41,543 nt of DNA from Deltaproteobacteria bacterium (GTDB lineage: Bacteria; Desulfobacterota; Deferrimicrobia; Deferrimicrobiales; Deferrimicrobiaceae). Positions 9,573-19,216 of the stretch are shown one piece after another. Made by a program: the position numbers and the translations under genes. How positions within the stretch are numbered: the first letter of the stretch is position 1; the number at the start of each line of letters is the position of its first letter. The DNA lies in contig JAQBCN010000060.1 of the NCBI GenBank assembly GCA_032125195.1, positions 1-41,543 on the forward strand, read 5' to 3'. Below the pieces are notes generated by a model that ran no database searches, was not told where the DNA came from, and worked only from the letters and a program-made list of their open reading frames with translations.

Positions 9573-10361
9573 ATGAAGGAGATCAAGGGACTGCGGCCGA
9601 GGGAAATCCGGGAACGGATCCGGAACGGGGAGTGGGGAAAACCCACGGCGGGGCTGGCCATGGGATACGCGCAGGCCAACCTCGTCATCCTTCCCCTGAA
9701 ACACGCCTTCGATTTTCTCCTGTTCTGCCAGAGGAACCCGAAGCCCTGCCCGCTTCTCGAGGTTCTCGAACCGGGGGAGTTCCGGACGAACTTTCTGGCT
9801 GCCGATGCGGATATCCGGACGGATATCCCACGCTACAACGTTTACCGCAAGGGGAAATTGATGCCCGCCGCGCGGGATATCCGCCGGTACTGGAGAAAGG
9901 ATTTCGTCACGTTTCTTCTCGGCTGCAGCTTCTCTTTCGAGGAGGCGTTGATCCGCGCGCAGGTTCCTCTCCGCCACATCGAGGAGGGGAGGAACGTTCC
10001 CATGTACATCACGGATATTCCCTGCGCTCCTTCCGGGGTCTTCCGCGGTCCCATGGTGGTATCGATGCGGCCCATCCCGATGGGGATGGTGACCCGGGCG
10101 GTCCAGATCACTTCCCGCTACGCTTTGGTCCACGGCGGGCCCGTCCATATCGGCGACCCGTCGAACATCGGGATCAAAAACCTCAATGCGCCGGATTTCG
10201 GGGATCCGGTGACGATAAAGAGGGGGGAGATCCCTGTCTTCTGGGCCTGCGGCGTGACCCCCCAGGCGGTGGTCATGGAGGCGAAGCCCGACCTCTGCAT
10301 CGCCCATGCGCCGGGGTACATGTTCGTGTCCGACCTGCTGAACGAGGAGCTGGCAACCTGA
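9573..10361 (+). CDS. Putative hydro-lyase / D-glutamate cyclase family (DUF1445, YcsI-like)
   Basis: Motifs QANLVIL, FCQRNPKPCPLL, DIRTDIPRY, LGCSFSFE, VVSMRP, HGGPVHIG, PVFWACGVTPQ and HAPGYM. Confidence 0.85.
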   Translation: MKEIKGLRPREIRERIRNGEWGKPTAGLAMGYAQANLVILPLKHAFDFLLFCQRNPKPCPLLEVLEPGEFRTNFLAADADIRTDIPRYNVYRKGKLMPAARDIRRYWRKDFVTFLLGCSFSFEEALIRAQVPLRHIEEGRNVPMYITDIPCAPSGVFRGPMVVSMRPIPMGMVTRAVQITSRYALVHGGPVHIGDPSNIGIKNLNAPDFGDPVTIKRGEIPVFWACGVTPQAVVMEAKPDLCIAHAPGYMFVSDLLNEELAT

Positions 10362-10368
10362 CAGCTCG

Positions 10369-11472
10369 TCACGGGATGGCGGGCGGGCGGACCCCCGGCA
10401 TCTTTCCCGAAAGCCCGGTGACGAGGAACTCCCGGAGGGACTCCTTTTCCTCCTTCGACAGCCCGAGCGGTTTCAGCAACGGCGATTTCTTCGGGTCGCC
10501 GCCTCCCCCGCGGTCGTAGAATTCGATCACCTCCTCGAGGTTCGGGAGGGCGCCGTTGTGCATATAGGGGGCGGTTGCCGCCACCTCCCGCAGCGAGGGG
10601 GTTGCGAACGCCTTCCAGTCCGCCGGGTCCTTCGTGACCAGAAACCGCCCCGGGTCCTCGAGGAGGGTCCGGTAGTCGGGGAACCCCGACACCTTGCCGA
10701 CGAACCGCGCGGTCGCAAGGATCCGCGGATCCTCCTTCTCCTTCGGGTCCTCCGGGACGCCGAGGTTGTGGAACCGTTCGTCGGTCAGGTTCGGGCCGCT
10801 GTGGCACGTCGCGCAGCCGGCCTTGCCGAGGAACAGCCCGAGCCCGTCGCGCTGCCGCGCCGAGAGCGCCCCCGGCTCCCCGCGCAGGTGACGGTCCAGC
10901 GGCGTGTCGCGGGAGAGGAGGGTCCGCTCGAAGGCGGCGATCGCCATCGCCACGCGCTGCCGGGTGATCTCTCCCCCGAAAACGGATCGAAACGCTTCCA
11001 CGTAGGCGGGGACCGTTTTCAGCACCTCTTCGAGATAGTCCAGGTTCCGGTTCATCTCGAAGGGGCTCATCATCGGGAAGAGGGCCTGCTCTTCGAGGGA
11101 GGTCGCCCGCCCGTCGTGGAACAGCCTCTTCCGGTACGCCACGTTCACGAGCCCCGGGGAGTTGCGCCAGTTCCGCGTGGTTGGATAAGAGAGGGAGGTC
11201 GGGAGCGCGTCGGCGAAGCCGGTCTCCGGGTCGTGGCAGGTGGCGCAACTCATCGTCCCGTCCCCCGACAGGCGCCGGTCGAAGAACAGCTTCTTCCCGA
11301 GCTCGACCTTCTCCGGCGTGGTCGGGTTCTCCGAAGGGGAAGGCGGGGGCGGCAGCGGGGAAAGAGCGGCGGGCGACGGGACGGTCTCCGCCGCGAACGA
11401 GGGGGAAGGGACGAAGGTCGCTCCCGCGAGGAGCGCGCAAAGAAGAAGGGGGGGAAGCGCGCGGAGGCTCAC
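10369..11472 (-). CDS. Exported di-haem cytochrome c peroxidase superfamily protein, MauG/MbnH-like
   Basis: Signal peptide. Motifs ELGKKLFFDRRLS, two CATCH haem sites, RNSP, PMMSPFEM, TPSLREVAATAPYMHNG and LEEVIEFYDRGG. Confidence 0.88.
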   Translation of the reverse strand: MSLRALPPLLLCALLAGATFVPSPSFAAETVPSPAALSPLPPPPSPSENPTTPEKVELGKKLFFDRRLSGDGTMSCATCHDPETGFADALPTSLSYPTTRNWRNSPGLVNVAYRKRLFHDGRATSLEEQALFPMMSPFEMNRNLDYLEEVLKTVPAYVEAFRSVFGGEITRQRVAMAIAAFERTLLSRDTPLDRHLRGEPGALSARQRDGLGLFLGKAGCATCHSGPNLTDERFHNLGVPEDPKEKEDPRILATARFVGKVSGFPDYRTLLEDPGRFLVTKDPADWKAFATPSLREVAATAPYMHNGALPNLEEVIEFYDRGGGGDPKKSPLLKPLGLSKEEKESLREFLVTGLSGKMPGVRPPAIP

Positions 11473-12104
11473 CGGTTCTTCCCTCCCGTTCCGGCGGTTT
11501 TGAGCTCCCTATCGATGACCGTCTTGTACGCCTCGAACGGCCGGTCCCCCGGAAGTTTCACCCCGTTGATGAAGATCGTCGGCGTGTTGTACAGGTCGAG
11601 CGCCTCCCCGAGCTTCACGTCCCGATCGATCTCCGGTGTATGCCGCATCGTGTCCAGGTCCTTCGTGAAGCGGGGGACGTCGAGCTTCAGTTCCTTCGCG
11701 TACGCGATGAGGCTTTCCCGGTCCAGCTTCGGCGACCGGTCGAGCAGGAGGAGGTGCATTTCGCGGAACTTCCCCTGGTCGTGCGCCGCAAGCGACGCCT
11801 CCGCGGCGATGCGCGAATGGTCCCGGTACCGGTACGGCAGGTGCTTCACCACGAGGCGGACGCTTCCGCCGTACTCCTTGAGGATCCTCTCGACGGTCGG
11901 ACCGACCGCCTTGCAGTGGGGTCACTGGTAGTCGAGGAATTCGACGATCGTCACCGGCGCGTTTGCGGGCCCGATGGACGGGGAGTCGCCCGCCGGCACG
12001 GCGTACCGGACGTCGGCTGCCCCCGCCGGGACCGCGGCGAGAAGCGTCAGGGTGATCCACAAGGCAAGGCGGCGTGCGTTCGGTCGCAAGGCGCTTCCTT
12101 TCAT
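11469..12104 (-). CDS. Exported DsbA/thioredoxin-fold selenoprotein (UPHC active site; in-frame TGA at 11922-11924 read as Sec)
   Basis: ORFs 11922..12122 and 11469..11852 share a frame and are joined by an open linker: GPANAPVTIVEFLDYQ-[TGA]-PHCKAVGPTVERIL...VVKHLP...YNTPTIFING. The TGA occupies the first Cys of CxxC and a SECIS-like hairpin follows. SD GGAGGAGG precedes ATG 12104. 211 aa. Confidence 0.88.
11892..11924 (-). promoter_or_regulatory. Bacterial SECIS-like element of the DsbA-like gene
   Basis: mRNA reads UGA + 11 nt + GGCGGUCG-GUC-CGACCGUC (8-bp stem, 3-nt loop; hairpin at 11892-11910). Confidence 0.75.
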
Positions 12105-12234
12105 GCGTTCCACCTCCTCCACCGAGATCGGTCGTTCTCCGCCAGCGATTCTACTACAATGCGGCCGGTTGGTCGCGTGCGGGGATGAATGTCCCTGCGG
12201 CGACGACGAAAAACAAATGACGGTTATTCCGGTG

Positions 12235-12340
12235 GCGATGATAAAATCGTTTAATATCGAATATATATAATGGATCGCGATTTATTATCGTTATTCATCT
12301 GATTTTTATTGATCTGTTTATAACATTTTTATAGTATCAG
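12235..12340. promoter_or_regulatory. AT-rich divergent regulatory region between the Sec-DsbA/MauG-like operon and the fdn operon
   Basis: The most AT-rich stretch in the window. Contains overlapping ATC-N11-GAT dyads (12287-12303, 12297-12313) and a degenerate ModE-like 27-mer at 12287-12313. A TAGAAT -10 lies nearby on the minus strand at 12148-12153. Confidence 0.55.
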
Positions 12341-12409
12341 CGAGGATCCGGCGGTTTTCTCTTTTTACGGATACGGCGTCAATCCGACCGACCGAAGGAG
12401 GTGCACCGG

Positions 12410-15400
12410 ATGGCGATATCACGCAGGGAGTTCTTCAAGACCTCGGGGGCGGGGCTGGCCGCGGGCCTGCTCGGCTTCTCCCTCGACCCCGTGAGGGCGA
12501 AGGCCGACGAGTTCAGCCTCCGCTACGCGAAGGAGACGACCACCATCTGCCCCTACTGCTCGGTGGGGTGCGGGATGATCGTCCACACGCTCGGCGGGAA
12601 CCTTGTGAACGTCGAAGGCGATCCCGATCACCCGATCAGCGAGGGGTCCCTCTGCCCGAAAGGCTCCTCGGTCCTCCAGCTCCGGGACAACAAGGCCCGC
12701 GTGACGAAGCCGCTCTACCGCGCGCCGGGCGCGAAGGAGTGGAAGGAGGTCGACTGGGACTGGGCGCTCGACGAGATCGCGAAGAAGGTGAAAAAGACCC
12801 GGGACGCCACCTTCACCGCCAAGAGCAGCATCAAGGTGAAGGAGAAGGTCGGGGACAAGGAGGTCGAGAAGACGGTCGAGGCGGTCGTCAACCGGACGAA
12901 CGGGATCGCCCACGTAGGGAGCGCCGCGCTGGACAACGAGGAGTGCTACCTCCTCCAGAAATTCCTCCGGGGGTTGGGCCTGGTCGCCATCGAGCACCAG
13001 GCGCGAATATGACACAGCGCCACTGTAGCGGCTCTGGCAGAGTCGTTCGGACGAGGCGCGATGACGAATCACTGGATCGACATAAAGAACGCGGACGTAA
13101 TCCTCATCATGGGGGCCAACCCGGCGGAGAACCACCCCGTCGCCTTCCGCTGGATCCAGCGGGCGAAGGATAACGGCGCCAAGGTCATCTGCGTCGACCC
13201 GCGCTTCACCCGGAGCGCGTCGAAGGCCGACATCTACGCCCCCCTCCGGTCGGGGACGGACATCGCCTTCCTCGGCGGGATGATCCGGCACATCCTCGAA
13301 AACCATCTCTACCACCAGGAGTACGTGGCCAACTACACGAACGCGTCGTACCTCGTTGGCCCCGACTTCAAGATGCCCGGAGACCTGGCCGGCCTCTTCT
13401 CCGGGTACGACAAGAAGAAGGGGAAGTACGACAAGAAGACGTGGGCGTACCAGAAGGGCCCCGACGAGGTGATCCGGAAGGACGAGACGCTGAAGGATCC
13501 CCGTTCCGTCTTCCAGTTGATGCGGAAGCACTACTCCCGATACACGCCCGACCTCGTATCGAGCATCACCGGAACGCCGAAGGAGGCGCTTCTCAAGGTA
13601 TACGAGGTGTACGGCTCCACGGGGAAGCCGGACCGGTCGGGGACCGAGCTGTACGCGATGGGGTGGACCCAGCACACGGTGGGGACGCAGAACATCCGCG
13701 CGATGAGCATCATCCAGCTGCTGCTCGGCAACGTCGGGGTGGCGGGCGGAGGGATCAACGCCCTGCGCGGCGAGAGCAACGTCCAGGGCTCCACCGACCA
13801 CGGGCTCCTCTTCCACATCCTTCCGGGGTATCTCGCGGTTCCTTCCGCGGACCTTCCCACCCTCGAGAAGTACGTCGAGAAGTACACCCCCAAGACGAAG
13901 GAGGCCCAGAGCGCGAACTGGTGGGGGAACCGGAACAAGTACATCACGAGCTACCTGAAGGCGATCTACGGCGCCAAGGCGACGAAGGAGAACGACTTCG
14001 GATACGCCTGGCTTCCCAAGAACGACCCGGGGGTGAACTCCTCCTGGCTGATGATCTTCGACAACATGCTTCGCGGCAAGTACAAGGGGTTCTTCGCCTG
14101 GGGGCAGAACCCGGCCTGCTCCGGATCCAACGCCGGAAAGGTCCGGAAGGCTTTGGAGCACCTGGAGTGGATGGTGACGGTCAACCTGTTCGACAACGAG
14201 ACGGCGTCGTTCTGGAAGGGGCCGGGGGTGGATTCGTCGAAGGTGAACACGGAGGTCTTCTTCCTCCCCGCGGCCGCTTCGTTCGAGAAGGAGGGGAGCG
14301 TCACCAATTCCGGCCGGTGGGCGCAGTGGCGCACCGCGGCGGTCAAGCCTCTCGGGCAGTCGCGGCCCGACTCCGAGATCATGAACGACCTCTTCTTCCG
14401 GCTCAAGGCGCGCTACGCGAAGGAGGGAGGCGTCTACCCCGACCCGCTCGTGAACCTCACCTGGAACTACGGGTACAGGCAGTTGGACGGTACGGCCCGG
14501 TCGGTCGACATCCACGCGGTGGCGAAGGAGATCAACGGCTACTTCGTCGACGACGTCGAAGTGAAGCCGAAACCGGGAGAGCCCCCCCCGAAGGAGAAGA
14601 CGTTCGTCGGGAAGAAGGGGGAGCTGGCGGGCAGCTTCGCGCTGCTCCAGGCGGACGGAACCACCACCAGCGGGAACTGGCTCTACTGCCAGAGCTACAA
14701 CGAGAAGGGGAACATGATGGCCCGGCGGGGAAAGAAGGACCCCACGGGGCTCGGGCTCTTCCCCGATTGGTCCTGGGCGTGGCCCGTGAACCGGCGAATC
14801 CTCTACAACCGGGCGTCGGTCGACCTTTCGGGCAAGCCGTACCTTTCGAAGAAGGCGGTCATCTACTGGAACGCCAACGCGGTCCTTCCCGGCGGGAAGC
14901 TCGGCAAGTGGGAGGGCGATGTTCCCGACGGGGGGTGGCCCCCGATGGGGAACGAGAAGGACGGGAAGAAGCCGTTCATCATGCGGGCCGACGGCGTGGC
15001 GTCGGTCTTCGGACCGGGGCTTGCGGACGGCCCGTTCCCCGAGCATTACGAGCCGCTGGAGTGCCCGATCCAGGAGAACCTGATGTCGAAGCAGATGACG
15101 AACCCCGCGGCGAAAAAGTTCGCCGACGGGGGGTTGCCCGAGGATGTGTACGCCTCCTGCGACACGCGGTTCCCTTACGTGGCGACGACGTACCGGGTGA
15201 CCGAGCACTGGCAGACGGGGGTGCTTTCCCGGAACGTCCCGTGGCTCCTCGAGCTCCAGCCCCGGCTGTTCGTGGAGATGAGTCGGGAGCTCGCGAAGGA
15301 GAAGAAGATCCGGAGCGGCGACATGGTCGAGGTCGCCTCGGCACGCGGCAAGGTCGACGCCGTCGCCATCGTCACCCTGCGTTTCAGGCCGTTCAAGGTG

Positions 15401-15562
15401 GCCGGCGGTACGGTTCACGAAGTCGGACTCCCGTGGTGCTTCGGCTGGTTTACGCCGGGGGTGGGGGAATCCGCCAACCTCCTCACGCCGACGGCGGGGG
15501 ACGCGAATACCATGATCCCTGAAACGAAGGCGTTCATGGTCAACGTCAAGGCGAGGGGGTGA
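12410..15562 (+). CDS. fdnG: Formate dehydrogenase alpha subunit, Tat-exported, selenocysteine-containing (TGA 13010-13012)
   Basis: Tat signal SRREFFK and 4Fe-4S motif CPYCSVGC...LCPKG. HQARI-[TGA]-HSATVAALAESFGRGAMTNHW joins ORFs 12401..13012 and 13061..15562 in frame. Also ALRGESNVQG and a C-terminal molydopterin-binding domain. 1050 aa. Confidence 0.96.
13010..13059 (+). promoter_or_regulatory. SECIS element of fdnG
   Basis: UGA + 15 nt + GCGGCUCU-GGC-AGAGUCGU (13028-13046). Extendable by an A-U pair, a bulged U and CUG/CGG, with a lower GCGCC/GGCGC stem. Confidence 0.85.
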
Positions 15563-16350
15563 CCGCCATGGCCGAGGTACGCATGGGATTTCTCGTAGAC
15601 ACGTCGCGCTGCATCGCCTGCCGCGCCTGCCAGGTCGCGTGCAAGGCGTGGAACCACCTGGACGCGGACAAGACGGTCGAGAAGGGGAGCTACGAAAACC
15701 CGACCGACCTCACCCCCAACCTCTACAACCGGATCCGGTTCCTCGAGAGCGCGGACGCCGGGGGGAACGTGAAGTGGCTCTTCATGAACGAGCGGTGCGT
15801 CCACTGCGGCGACGCGGGGTGCATGAAGGTCTGCCCGGCGCCGGGGGCGCTCCACCGGACGAAGGAAGGGATCGTCGTCTTCGACAAGGAGAAGTGCATT
15901 TCGTGCAAGTATTGCGTCTCCGCCTGTCCGTTCAACATCCCCCGCTACGGGGCGGACGACAAGGTGACCAAGTGCCACCTGTGCTTCGACCGGATCGGGG
16001 CGGGCATGCTCCCGGCGTGCGCCCAGGCGTGTCCGACCGAGACGCTGCAGTTCGGGGGCCGGAACGCCCTGATCGCGAAGGCGAAGGGGGCGGGGAAGAA
16101 GCTGTACGGGGAGAGCGCGCTCGAGGGACTGGGGGTCGTCTACGCGCTCGAGGAGAAGCCCGAGGTGTACGGCCTTCCGGAGAATCCGTCGATCCCGACA
16201 TCGATCTTCCTGTGGAAGGACGTGGTGAGGCCGCTCGGGATCCTCGGCTTCTGGGGCAGCGTCGCCGCGGTGGTGGTCCACTACGTGACCTTCGGATCGC
16301 GCCAGCTCGAGGAGGACGGGAAGGGGAAGGGAGGCGATGCGCATGGGTAG
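15559..16350 (+). CDS. fdnH: Formate dehydrogenase iron-sulfur (beta) subunit
   Basis: Four Cys clusters (CIACRACQVAC; CVHCGDAGCMKVCP; CISCKYCVSACP; CHLC..PACAQACP) and a C-terminal TM helix. Start may be ATG 15568. Confidence 0.92.
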   Translation: MTAMAEVRMGFLVDTSRCIACRACQVACKAWNHLDADKTVEKGSYENPTDLTPNLYNRIRFLESADAGGNVKWLFMNERCVHCGDAGCMKVCPAPGALHRTKEGIVVFDKEKCISCKYCVSACPFNIPRYGADDKVTKCHLCFDRIGAGMLPACAQACPTETLQFGGRNALIAKAKGAGKKLYGESALEGLGVVYALEEKPEVYGLPENPSIPTSIFLWKDVVRPLGILGFWGSVAAVVVHYVTFGSRQLEEDGKGKGGDAHG

Positions 16351-16957
16351 GAAATACGTCGAGCGATTCAACACGGCCGAGCGGGTGCTCCACTGGTTCG
16401 TCGCCGCGTCGTTCTTCACCCTGCTCCTGTCGGGGCTGGGGCTCTACTCCCGGCTCTTCCACGGCTACTTCGACCTGTTCGGGGGCGGGGAGGGGGCGAT
16501 CCTGGCCCACAAGTACGGGGGGGTGGTCTTCTTCGTCAGTTCCCTGATGCTCTTCCTCAACCACGCAAAGGATATGTTCACTTTCGACGAGGACGACCGG
16601 AAGTGGTGCAAGTCGCTGGGGGGCTACCTGTCGAAGAACCCCGAGCACATCAACAGCGGGAAGTTCAACGCCGGACAGAAGCTGTTCGGCATCTTCATGG
16701 GGATCTCGACGCTGCTGCTCGGGATCACCGGGGTCATCAACTGGGTCCCCGAATCGTTCCCGCGGGGGGTCGTCCAGTTTTCGCTGCTGCTCCACGGCCT
16801 CCTGTTCGTCTGGTTCGTGATGCTCATGATCGTGCACGTCTACCTCACCACGATCGGCAACCCGGGGACGCTCGAGGGGATGTTGTACGGCAACGTCCGC
16901 AGGATCTGGGCGCGGACCCACCACCCGAAATGGTATAAGGAGGTAGAGGGCGAATAA
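16343..16957 (+). CDS. fdnI: Formate dehydrogenase cytochrome b (gamma) subunit
   Basis: Motifs ERVLHW, LLSGL, GKFNAGQK, LLH..IVHVY and WARTHHPKWY; four TM helices. Confidence 0.92.
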   Translation: MGRKYVERFNTAERVLHWFVAASFFTLLLSGLGLYSRLFHGYFDLFGGGEGAILAHKYGGVVFFVSSLMLFLNHAKDMFTFDEDDRKWCKSLGGYLSKNPEHINSGKFNAGQKLFGIFMGISTLLLGITGVINWVPESFPRGVVQFSLLLHGLLFVWFVMLMIVHVYLTTIGNPGTLEGMLYGNVRRIWARTHHPKWYKEVEGE

Positions 16958-16982: not shown

Positions 16983-17825
16983 ATGAGTCGTACGGCGGAC
17001 AAGATTGCGCACCTCCGGAAGACCGCTTTCGAGCATCCGGAGTACATCGACGTGCTCCTCCCGTTCGAAGAGATCTTCGCGTACGTGGACGGGAAGGAAG
17101 CCGGGACGGGGATCCGCTTCGCCGTCCCGGAAGGGAACGGGGCGGAGCGGGTGCAGGGAGGTCTTCCGCTCCTGTCTCCCGAGGCGCTCTCCGTGGATCG
17201 GGACGCCGCGACGGCCTTCCTTTCCGGGCTGCTCGACGTCCTGCGGCGTGTCGGCAGGGAGGGGCACGCGGATCTCGACCGGATCGGGGGGGGGCTTTCG
17301 GACGGTTCCCTCGACCTTGCCTCCCTGTACGTCGCCTGTCTTGCCCGGAAACGGGACGTCGTGGACCAGGCGGCGACCTCCCTTTCGGTCCAGGCGCCCC
17401 TGCTCGCCTTCGTCCTCGAGATTCCGTTGAAGACCGCCCTCGAGCGCGTTTCCTCCACCCTTCCCACGGAGCGGTTCGACGGATGGAAGGAAGGGTATTG
17501 TCCCGTCTGCGGCTCCCGCGCCGGGATGGCCGAACTTTCCGGGGACGAGGGGAAGCGGCGGCTCTCCTGCTCCGCCTGCTTCTTCCTCTGGCCGTTCCCC
17601 CGGATCCAATGCCCCTACTGCGGAAACGCGGACCCGGAAACGCTCTCCTATTTCACCGCCGGGGACGGGCCCACCCGGGTCGGGGTGTGCCGCGGCTGCA
17701 GCCGGTACCTGAAGACCTGCGATACGCGCCTCGGGAACGCGAACGTGCCGCTGGAAGCCGAAGACCTCGCCACCCTCCACCTGGACCTGCTGGCGGGGAA
17801 GGAAGGGTTCGAGAGAGGGAAATGA
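16983..17825 (+). CDS. fdhE: Formate dehydrogenase accessory protein FdhE
   Basis: GYCPVCGS, CSAC, RIQCPYCGN, CRGCSRYLK and DLATLHLDLLA; position in the fdn operon. Confidence 0.9.
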   Translation: MSRTADKIAHLRKTAFEHPEYIDVLLPFEEIFAYVDGKEAGTGIRFAVPEGNGAERVQGGLPLLSPEALSVDRDAATAFLSGLLDVLRRVGREGHADLDRIGGGLSDGSLDLASLYVACLARKRDVVDQAATSLSVQAPLLAFVLEIPLKTALERVSSTLPTERFDGWKEGYCPVCGSRAGMAELSGDEGKRRLSCSACFFLWPFPRIQCPYCGNADPETLSYFTAGDGPTRVGVCRGCSRYLKTCDTRLGNANVPLEAEDLATLHLDLLAGKEGFERGK

Positions 17826-19216
17826 GCCGCCTTCCCGGAGACGACGCGAAGGGCGGGGACTCCGCGCCCGTCCTGCGGTACGACGGGCGGCGGCTGGCCC
17901 CCACCCGGCATCTTCCCGTACGGGAGGTCCCCGTTGCCCTCACGGTCAACGGCGTCCTCCTCGCGACGCTGATCGCCTCGCCCCACGACCTGCAGTTCCT
18001 GGTGGCCGGTTTCCTCCGGATGCAGGGACTGATCCGTTCCGCCGGCGACCTCCAGACCTTGAGCGTGTGCGAAGATTTCGGCGCGGCGTCCGTCCGGATC
18101 CGGGGAGACGTGCCGGATCGCATCACCCCGACCTTCACCTCCGGGTGCGGCGCCGGGATCAGTTTCCACGTTCCCGCATCCGGAGGGCGCCAGGTCCAGC
18201 ACCCCTCCGCCGGGCCGTCCGTCTCCCCGGAGTCTCTTTTTTCGGCGATGGACGCGCTTGCGGGGGCGTCCGAGGCGTACCGCGGGAGCGGGGGGATCCA
18301 CTCCGCCGGCGCATGGGACGGCGAGCGGCTCCTCCTGTTCGCCGAGGATATCGGGCGGCACAACACGATCGACCGGATCGCGGGGCAGGCGCTCCTGGGG
18401 GGGATCGACCTCTCGGGCCGGATCCTCGTCGCCTCGGGGCGCGTGTCCTCGGAGATGGCGGCGAAGGCGGGCTCCCTCGGGATCTCCGTGATCGCCTCCC
18501 GCACCTCCCCCACCGACCTCGCGGTCAGGATCTGCGGGGAACTGGGGATCACACTCGTCGGGTACGTGCGGGGCCGCAGGTTCAACGTCTACACCCATCC
18601 GACGCGGATCGCCGCCGCGGCCGCGGAGAGGATTCCCGGGGTCACGGGAGTGATCCTCGCGGGGGGACGCTCCGGCCGGATGGGGAGCGACAAGGCGCTC
18701 CTGCCGTACCAGGGCGGGCGGTTCATCGAGGCGATCCACCGGCGGATGGAGGAGCTGTTCGACGAGGTGATCGTCGCCACCGGGGAGACGGCCCGGTACG
18801 ATTTCCTGCCGTGCCGCCGGGTGACGGATCTCTACCCCGGGATGGGCGCGCTGGGGGGGATCCACGCGGCGTTGCGGGCGAGCGAATCGGAGAAGGTCTT
18901 CGTCGTGGCGTGCGACATGCCGCACTTCGCGCCGGACCTCATCCGGCACCTGTGCTCCCTGACGGAAGAGGCGGATGTCGTGGTTCCCGAGGGGGAGGGG
19001 GGGATCGAGCCGCTTCACGCGGTGTACCGGAAGGGCGTCCTCCCCGCCGTGGAAGACGCGCTGCGGAACGGGCAGTGCCGCGTGGTCTCCTTCTTCGACC
19101 GGGTGCGCGTCCGCCGCGTTCCCTTCGCGGAGGTGAAGCGGATCGATCCCGATCTGCGCGCCTTCCGGAACATCAACACCCCCGAGGAGTATTACCGCTT
19201 TCGCGACGGGGAGTAA
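17822..19216 (+). CDS. fdhD-mobA: Fusion of FdhD sulfurtransferase and MobA molybdenum-cofactor guanylyltransferase
   Basis: ATG 17822 overlaps the fdhE stop. N-half has TSGCG, SGGIHSA, EDIGRHNTIDR, SGRVSSEM and LVGYVRG. C-half has VILAGGRSGRMGSDKA, GALGGIH, VVACDMP, EPLHAVY and NINTPEEY. Confidence 0.9.
   Translation: MSRLPGDDAKGGDSAPVLRYDGRRLAPTRHLPVREVPVALTVNGVLLATLIASPHDLQFLVAGFLRMQGLIRSAGDLQTLSVCEDFGAASVRIRGDVPDRITPTFTSGCGAGISFHVPASGGRQVQHPSAGPSVSPESLFSAMDALAGASEAYRGSGGIHSAGAWDGERLLLFAEDIGRHNTIDRIAGQALLGGIDLSGRILVASGRVSSEMAAKAGSLGISVIASRTSPTDLAVRICGELGITLVGYVRGRRFNVYTHPTRIAAAAAERIPGVTGVILAGGRSGRMGSDKALLPYQGGRFIEAIHRRMEELFDEVIVATGETARYDFLPCRRVTDLYPGMGALGGIHAALRASESEKVFVVACDMPHFAPDLIRHLCSLTEEADVVVPEGEGGIEPLHAVYRKGVLPAVEDALRNGQCRVVSFFDRVRVRRVPFAEVKRIDPDLRAFRNINTPEEYYRFRDGE

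Follow-up and report, generated by a model that had tools for sequence, protein, structure and literature searches.

The window analysed here is a stretch of 41,543 nucleotides from a Deltaproteobacteria bacterium of the family Deferrimicrobiaceae (GenBank assembly GCA_032125195.1, contig JAQBCN010000060.1, positions 1 to 41,543). Two coupled genes were found on its minus strand at positions 10369..12104. The first, at 11469..12104, encodes a DsbA-type protein of 211 aa when an in-frame TGA is read through as selenocysteine (Sec), and is referred to below as Sec-DsbA. The second, at 10369..11472, starts with GTG and encodes a 367-aa protein of the di-haem superfamily of cytochrome c peroxidases (CCP), MauG and MbnH. 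The pair stands divergent from formate dehydrogenase (FDH) genes in the order fdhA-fdhB-fdhC-fdhE-like, followed by an fdhD-mobA open reading frame (ORF). Between fdhA and the pair lies an A+T-rich intergenic stretch (12105..12400) that presumably holds both promoters.

The Sec-DsbA gene begins with ATG at 12104, with GGAGG located 8-9 nt upstream, and an alternative in-frame GTG start lies at 12122. The minus-strand ORF (12122/12104..11925) ends with ...EFLDYQ and is followed by the in-frame TGA at 11922-11924 and then by PHCK.... Beyond this codon the frame is open to the stop TGA at 11469-11471, with one internal TGA only. Translation with table 11 splits the locus into pieces of 66 and 127 aa.

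The active site of the read-through product is U61-P-H-C64 within Q-U-P-H-C-K, numbered from ATG 12104. Matches over the gathering scores were obtained with the Pfam families Thioredoxin_4 (PF13462; 7.3e-23, 82 bits) and DSBA (PF01323; 4.4e-15, 56.4 bits). The cis-Pro loop T174-P175-T176 was invariant across the orthologues. The N-terminus, judged by eye, resembles a signal peptide of the general export pathway ending in ...PAGA|ADV, and no lipobox Cys was found in this leader. The score with NF041057, the family of the Rcas_1661 (seleno)lipoprotein described as 'DsbG-like', was 75.5 bits and below the 190-bit cut-off. The closest solved structures were distant DsbA-like proteins, 3gyk with 74.1 bits and ScsC/copper-resistance proteins with about 58 bits. 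An earlier note on this DNA had proposed a 211-aa read-through protein of the thioredoxin fold with a U-P-H-C site, joined by a GTGA overlap to an exported protein with two CATCH motifs. Its coordinates for the pair, the TGA and the overlap were all correct, and the translation and Pfam matches confirmed the protein it described.

A pattern scan of species genomes resulted in 575 confirmed relatives, and the locus counts given below refer to the best 80 of these. The TGA was kept at the U61 column in 80/80 loci, 79 of them with U-P-H-C and one with U-A-H-C. By a hand count of their labels, 31 loci were of the Nitrospirota type, 22 of the Desulfobulbales type and 5 of Deferrimicrobium/Deferrimicrobiaceae, while 17 were labelled generically as 'delta proteobacterium' or 'bacterium' and 5 belonged to others; four originate from cultured strains (L096, L101, L104, L105), among them Desulfopila aestuarii DSM 18488 (L096), Desulfofustis glycolicus DSM 9705 (L105) and Desulfoprunum benzoelyticum DSM 28570 (L104). 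A comparison with 41 related genomes gave matches at E <= 1e-10 in 24 places, and 23 of these contained exactly one TGA, one of the 23 being a partial N-terminal match in which the TGA position was not placed. The TGA occupied the same column in all 20 translated related loci, with the motif D-Y-Q-U-P-H-C in loci of the genus and D-F-Q-U-P-Y-C in those of another family. Upstream of the TGA, the residues P42, G45, E55, F56, D58 and Q60 were invariant in frame in 64 sequences from several phyla, and in-frame protein conservation was detected on both flanks of the codon across three phyla. Two additional DNA runs and one RNA-library run gave contigs that span the TGA with 0 letters differing.

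In the wider family, sampled from 401 genomes of the phylum, TGA was found in some members (UPHC, UPYC, UPFC) and Cys in many. The forms CPFC, CPYC and CPHC occupied the Sec column in about 20 other, more distant loci. Two loci (L039:573-2025 and L045:606-2010) carry tandem distant homologues, the one encoded with TGA (U-P-F-C), the other with Cys (C-P-F-C); in each, the leader is lipoprotein-like and an N-terminal stretch resembles a coiled coil. In another Sec subfamily, with U-P-Y-C (L022, L023, L024, L042), the N-terminus is extended by about 130 aa containing repeat-like strands (...IEVSPRGD...), and the gene lacks a di-haem neighbour.

In public databases, 119 of the 120 best matches were C-terminal pieces of Sec-DsbA with a length of 123-135 aa, in agreement with the expectation of the earlier note that standard annotation would show only broken fragments. 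The only full-length entry among the 120 (P0003) reads ...D-Y-Q-W-P-H-C..., with Trp at the Sec position, and was apparently translated with a code reading TGA as Trp.

Bacterial selenocysteine insertion sequence (SECIS) elements are stem-loops positioned shortly past the UGA, with a G in the apical loop. A hairpin of this type was found at 11892..11910 on the minus strand; it begins 11 nt past the UGA and consists of 8 bp closed by the loop GUC, which provides the G. Over 78 distinct sequences, 90.7% of the cells pair and 4 of the 8 pairs were changed on both sides, for example from G-C to U-A or A-U. The observed level of covariation was reached in 0/500 shuffles, and slid registers paired at 13.8-52.2%. 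The GUC loop was invariant across the sequences, and at one pair position a C.A mismatch was present in 48 of them. The source genome, which is 94.9% complete, encodes the Sec machinery with all scores over the curated cut-offs: selA with 556.9 bits, selB with 298.1, selD with 315.7 and tRNA-Sec with 74.1. The selD match itself (G000:C206:1584-2576, locus L003) contains one in-frame TGA, and SelD is probably a selenoprotein too.

An assembly artefact as the source of the TGA was ruled out by the 80/80 conservation, the Cys homologues, the hairpin, the Sec machinery and the independent contigs. The proposals that the earlier note had made for this codon were borne out as well. The comparison of TGA with Cys gave TGA in all the best loci and Cys in the distant homologues; the TGA was not private to the assembly, being kept in the 80 loci and identical in the independent contigs; the SECIS-like hairpin was backed by covariation; and the selA, selB, selD and tRNA-Sec genes were present. 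At every level short of chemistry it can be regarded as established that the gene 12104..11472 encodes a genuine selenoprotein, predicted to be an exported DsbA-type oxidoreductase with Sec as the first active-site residue.

The stop TGA of Sec-DsbA (11469-11471) overlaps the GTG start of the di-haem gene (11470-11472), forming GTGA at 11469-11472. The di-haem protein has a signal-peptide-like leader and two CXXCH motifs, both C-A-T-C-H as previously noted, at C76-H80 and C220-H224. The synteny suggested by the earlier note was also found: the di-haem gene lies directly downstream of Sec-DsbA in 78/80 loci, and the other two have less than 140 nt of downstream sequence. The junction was GTGA or ATGA in 15 of the 17 genus loci that reach it, and outside the genus the gap ranged from a few bases to a few hundred. 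In the source genome the di-haem gene is the sole PF03150 gene (1.2e-52). No di-haem gene was found downstream of the distant Sec and Cys DsbA homologues of the 401-genome sample.

Some variation was observed around the pair. One Nitrospirota locus (L079:2125-3295) has two tandem Sec-DsbA copies ahead of the di-haem gene. In L070 and L073, both from one metagenome-assembled genome, DsbA is directly followed by no more than the C-terminal half of a di-haem gene. A 3-nt deletion at about 11366, in the Pro-rich linker past the di-haem leader, was present in contigs of three runs; it keeps the frame and represents strain variation.

The family of the di-haem protein was evaluated by profile, sequence and fold. 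Its best NCBIfam matches were MauG (TIGR03791; 244.9 bits, cut-off 443.85) and MbnH (TIGR04039; 216.2 bits, cut-off 362.85, alignment spanning 2-320 of 336 positions), though both were below the threshold. Against solved structures, the whole-length sequence scored 188 bits with Geobacter MacA/CcpA, 145 with the MbnH-like 6e1c and 86 with MauG. The predicted model (pLDDT 75.5) gave TMq values of 0.67 with MacA, 0.64 with 6e1c and 0.54-0.58 with MauG. The C-terminal 103 residues matched 6e1c best, with 49.1 bits. Overall, both sequence and fold place the protein nearer to the canonical bacterial peroxidases. Of the earlier description as an atypical MauG/MbnH-like enzyme, 'atypical' holds, whereas the likeness to MauG and MbnH is only partly right, both cut-offs being missed.

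The residues of the di-haem protein were tallied over 67 orthologues. Both CXXCH motifs and the residues Q129, E139, N141, N104, T300, P302 and H305 were invariant. Q129, E139 and N141 align with the Gln/Glu of the peroxidatic pocket of bacterial CCP, and N104, T300 and P302 with the Ca site of the bacterial peroxidases. The column of the MacA distal His (H93) is an invariant Tyr96. The column of the bridging Trp, the W of FWDGRA, contained H in 48 sequences, R in 9, F in 5, Y in 3 and W in 2, with His119 in the window protein. At the column of the Met ligand of bacterial CCP (...AVAVMG...), which is also that of Tyr294 of MauG, F was found in 50, Y in 9, L in 7 and I in 1, with Tyr319 in the window protein. 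Tyr294 and Trp93 are the Tyr axial ligand and the inter-haem Trp of MauG, Y294 variants being named in the titles of PDB entries, and at neither of these columns is the MauG residue conserved in the orthologues. Past the second haem motif, an insertion of about 20 residues was detected relative to MacA/CcpA. Met304, within P-Y-M-H, was invariant.

The genes on the opposite strand are those of a periplasmic Sec-containing FDH. The gene fdhA (12401..15562, plus strand) encodes an FDH-N-type alpha subunit (TIGR01553, 1369.4 bits) with a twin-arginine leader and a classical Sec site, the TGA of U204 at 13010-13012. It is thereby itself a selenoprotein, and gene callers split it too. It is followed on the same strand by fdhB (15559-16350; TIGR01582, 240 bits, below the 334.7 cut-off), the cytochrome b gene fdhC (16337-16957; TIGR01583, 153.5 bits, over the cut-off) and an fdhE-like gene (16983-17825), which scored below the cut-off with TIGR01562 (57.6 bits) and above it with PF24860 FdhE_C (31.9 bits). 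The plus-strand ORF 17483..19216, with a provisional start codon, encodes FdhD (residues 139-377) and MobA (387-575). It overlaps the end of the fdhE-like gene and suggests a fused gene for FDH sulfurtransferase and molybdopterin guanine dinucleotide synthesis. On the other side of the pair, the di-haem gene is met by a convergent gene of the D-glutamate cyclase/hydro-lyase family (9573-10361; PF07286, PRK05463 with 422.5 bits), whose position there is not conserved in other lineages.

At least one fdh gene was present in the fetched flanks of 69/80 loci. The genes fdhA/B were found in 53 of the 80, upstream on the same strand in 47 and divergent in 6. The gene fdhE stood directly past the di-haem gene in 44 of the 67 loci with at least 900 nt of downstream sequence. 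The commonest order was fdhA-fdhB-fdhC (or an NrfD-type subunit)-SecDsbA-dihaem-fdhE, in some loci with moeA next. In some Nitrospirota the upstream genes encode DUF485, a sodium:solute symporter and an AMP-binding enzyme, and fdhE is still downstream. These comparisons show the pair to be a conserved accessory of periplasmic Sec-FDH clusters in the Deferrimicrobium lineage, Nitrospirota and Desulfobulbales. Membership in the FDH cluster had been missed by the earlier note and is the best clue to the role of the pair; the placement suggests an undescribed helper of formate dehydrogenase.

A cysteine pair of FdhA is of interest in this context. Cys888 and Cys920 of the window protein (codons 15062-15064 and 15158-15160, plus strand) align with C845 and C872 of D. 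vulgaris FdhA (against 6sdr_A, hand-counted), which form an allosteric disulfide. C845/C872 form a surface disulfide holding D. vulgaris FdhAB in an O2-stable resting state (PMC13397495). Cys was present at both columns in 52/52 FdhA C-terminal matches located beside the pair in 51 loci.

Genomes lacking the pair were compared as well. Genome G007, of the same genus and 97% complete, has orthologous fdhABCE with 85-93% identity and keeps both FdhA cysteines. No Sec-DsbA match was found genome-wide in G007, and the pair was not found within 14 kb of its fdhABCE (G007:C24, L134); the genome looks like a natural knockout of the pair. In G004 the FdhA is distant and without the Cys pair, and the Sec-DsbA/di-haem pair is absent too, while G012 and G016 have neither FdhA nor the pair. 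The idea that any FDH with the Cys pair requires Sec-DsbA and its partner was rejected by G007, and the pair is accessory, not essential, to FDH.

The explanation considered best overall, with a probability of roughly 0.5, is that Sec-DsbA and the di-haem protein form an FDH accessory, a peroxide-linked selenol/thiol relay which would protect or switch FDH. The di-haem enzyme, keeping its peroxide-activating haem pocket and Ca site, would react with H2O2. Having no distal His, no bridging Trp and no Met ligand, it would lack the usual intake of electrons from cytochrome c, and the two electrons would be drawn from the selenol/thiol pair of Sec-DsbA, leaving a selenenylsulfide on the latter. 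The peroxide-driven selenenylsulfide is proposed because the H2O2 pocket is kept, the cytochrome c path is lost and the sole invariant partner is a potential two-electron selenol/thiol donor. Once oxidised, Sec-DsbA would target thiols of the adjacent FDH, most likely the surface Cys pair corresponding to the O2-protective allosteric disulfide of D. vulgaris FdhAB. As an alternative end point, the pair may just remove peroxide beside FDH. Both the direction of the electron flow and the FDH target are put forward as hypotheses. A more specific form, in which, on exposure to peroxide or oxygen, H2O2-loaded Sec-DsbA closes the Cys888/Cys920 disulfide of FdhA and parks FDH in an O2-stable state as a protection switch, is tentative and must be called unlikely.

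Several observations weigh against this explanation or against the selenoprotein reading beneath it. Ordinary routes to oxidise and reduce a DsbA exist in the organism, a VKOR homologue (83.6 bits) and a DsbD-type membrane protein (a DsbD_TM gene) both being encoded in the genome. DsbB was not found in this 94.9% complete genome, and the VKOR homologue weakens the view of the di-haem enzyme as the only substitute for the absent DsbB. The invariant Met304 could restore a His/Met electron-entry haem at the C-terminal haem. The FdhA Cys pair may be a clade trait, the 52/52 having been counted only beside the Sec-DsbA/di-haem pair. G007 keeps fdhABCE without the pair, which is therefore dispensable for such an FDH, and 11/80 loci had no fdh gene in the fetched flanks. 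The RNA-library contigs over the pair (X15 and X16, spanning the junction and parts of both genes) do not prove transcription, as DNA carry-over is possible. The single-sequence fold of the hairpin was not better than shuffles (z = 0.16), for which reason the support for the hairpin rests on the comparison. Finally, Rfam at gathering thresholds reported no RNA family in the window; this result carries little weight because the certain Sec site of fdhA was missed too.

Peroxide defence without a thiol target on FDH is rather unlikely to be the whole explanation. In that case, the di-haem protein would be a working peroxidase with Sec-DsbA as its dedicated reductant, re-reduced via DsbD/CcdA; in a variant, the two proteins would act separately. 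Either way, FDH would be co-located through co-regulation in O2-exposed anaerobes. The invariance of the peroxidatic-pocket and Ca-site residues is consistent with this, the nearest solved relatives being true peroxidases (MacA/CcpA; 188 bits, TMq 0.67). The DsbD_TM gene, the ability of G007 to manage without the pair, and the varying oxygen predicted for Ca. Deferrimicrobium in PMC9386147 also point in this direction. However, the same-strand placement between fdhC and fdhE in 47 loci is tighter than co-regulation needs, and the features for cytochrome c-fed turnover are absent from the di-haem protein. Moreover, U-P-H-C is the selenium form of C-P-H-C, the oxidising motif of E. coli DsbA, and is not of the reductase type.

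Covalent maturation like that of preMADH by MauG or of MbnP by MbnH, in which a high-valent di-haem enzyme would modify Sec-DsbA or a residue of exported FdhA to make a cofactor or cross-link, is quite improbable. It would agree with the strict pairing in 78/80 loci and with the likeness of the C-terminal region to MbnH-like 6e1c (49.1 bits). MauG and MbnH were also the best NCBIfam matches, and the distal His is absent, as it is from the five-coordinate haem of MauG. The Tyr ligand and the bridging Trp of MauG are important for its bis-Fe(IV) state, yet the column of Tyr294 is mostly Phe and that of the bridging Trp mostly His/Arg in the orthologues, and the scores were under both the MauG and the MbnH cut-offs. 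In Sec-DsbA, no Trp-rich stretch or other evident target motif that is conserved came to light, though no search aimed at one was made. In favour of this reading, the substrates of MauG and MbnH are encoded next door to these enzymes (PMC11951088).

That the TGA is a true stop, in a decayed DsbA gene or between two small genes with another role for the hairpin, is highly improbable: gene callers give a 127-aa product from a GTG past the TGA and no Rfam SECIS match was reported, but that product has neither an active site nor a signal peptide, the frame is conserved on both flanks in three phyla, the TGA falls exactly on the first Cys of CxxC and was never replaced in 80/80 loci, and the Sec machinery of the genome is complete.

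The proposed FDH-linked relay was compared with known systems. The motif of E. coli DsbA, C-P-H-C, is strongly oxidising. Sec-DsbA shares with the E. coli-type proteins the Pfam DSBA match, the X-P-H-C motif, the cis-Pro loop and, as a prediction, the periplasmic targeting, and differs by Sec in place of the nucleophilic Cys and by DsbB not being found in the source genome. With Geobacter MacA/CcpA and P. aeruginosa CCP, the di-haem protein shares two CXXCH motifs, the aligned pocket Gln/Glu and the aligned Asn/Thr/Pro Ca site, but in contrast to these canonical peroxidases it has Tyr96 for the distal His, His for the FWDGRA Trp and Phe/Tyr/Leu at the Met-ligand column. As in MbnH/MbnP and MauG/preMADH, a di-haem enzyme is encoded beside its periplasmic partner and the C-terminal domain is 6e1c-like; unlike in those systems, the partner is the thioredoxin-fold Sec-DsbA, not MbnP or methylamine dehydrogenase. 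In the endoplasmic reticulum, GPx7/8 or PRDX4 oxidise protein disulfide isomerase with H2O2. The logic of those relays is alike, from H2O2 to a disulfide on a thioredoxin-fold carrier and on to clients, as an analogy with no homology; here the chemistry would be that of haem, and the selenium is on the carrier instead of the peroxidase.

Predictions of DsbA-like UxxC selenoproteins date back to 2005, and these proteins are still uncharacterised (PMC1088965, PMC1794560, PMC13188914); PMC13188914 lists a 'DsbA-like protein form 1' with PF01323. The features shared with the UxxC proteins of Zhang and Gladyshev (2005/2006) are the DSBA/thioredoxin fold, Sec first in CxxC, Cys homologues, a SECIS element downstream and an uncharacterised function. 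The window subfamily is distinguished from them by U-P-H-C, by its predicted export, by Sec in 80/80 best loci, and by the di-haem gene downstream, usually inside an FDH cluster; as far as the published descriptions were available, such a context is mentioned in none of them. The examples named there are Sargasso Sea sequences, Anaeromyxobacter, D. desulfuricans and Desulfotomaculum reducens, and these may belong to the window subfamily. No paper joining FDH, fdhE, a di-haem peroxidase and DsbA was found among open-access full texts, and the genome paper of Ca. Deferrimicrobium has no mention of peroxidase, DsbA or selenocysteine. The suggestion of the earlier note that the pair is an undescribed redox module needs correcting as regards the UxxC selenoprotein family, which had already been predicted. 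The always-Sec, FDH-linked DsbA subfamily with its atypical di-haem partner appears to be new within a known predicted family; a prior mention is possible.

Since the family is represented in public sets almost only by 127-aa fragments, the selenoproteins of these lineages are being undercounted. For haem enzymology, the di-haem enzyme provides a natural CCP/MauG-type scaffold from which the bridging Trp and the usual sixth ligand are both missing. Metal-dependent FDHs attract intense study as catalysts of CO2 reduction, and how to deal with their sensitivity to oxygen is a central problem. The protective disulfide of the D. vulgaris FDH is known, and no cellular partner making or breaking it is named in the available part of the source (PMC13397495); Sec-DsbA and the di-haem protein, located between fdhC and fdhE in three phyla, are a concrete candidate for this partner. 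If the switch operates, it would name the missing in-vivo oxidant of the allosteric disulfide. If the relay holds, disulfides would be generated by haem chemistry and carried by selenium, an arrangement for which no bacterial counterpart has been described, and the cultured carriers make the role of the pair accessible to test.

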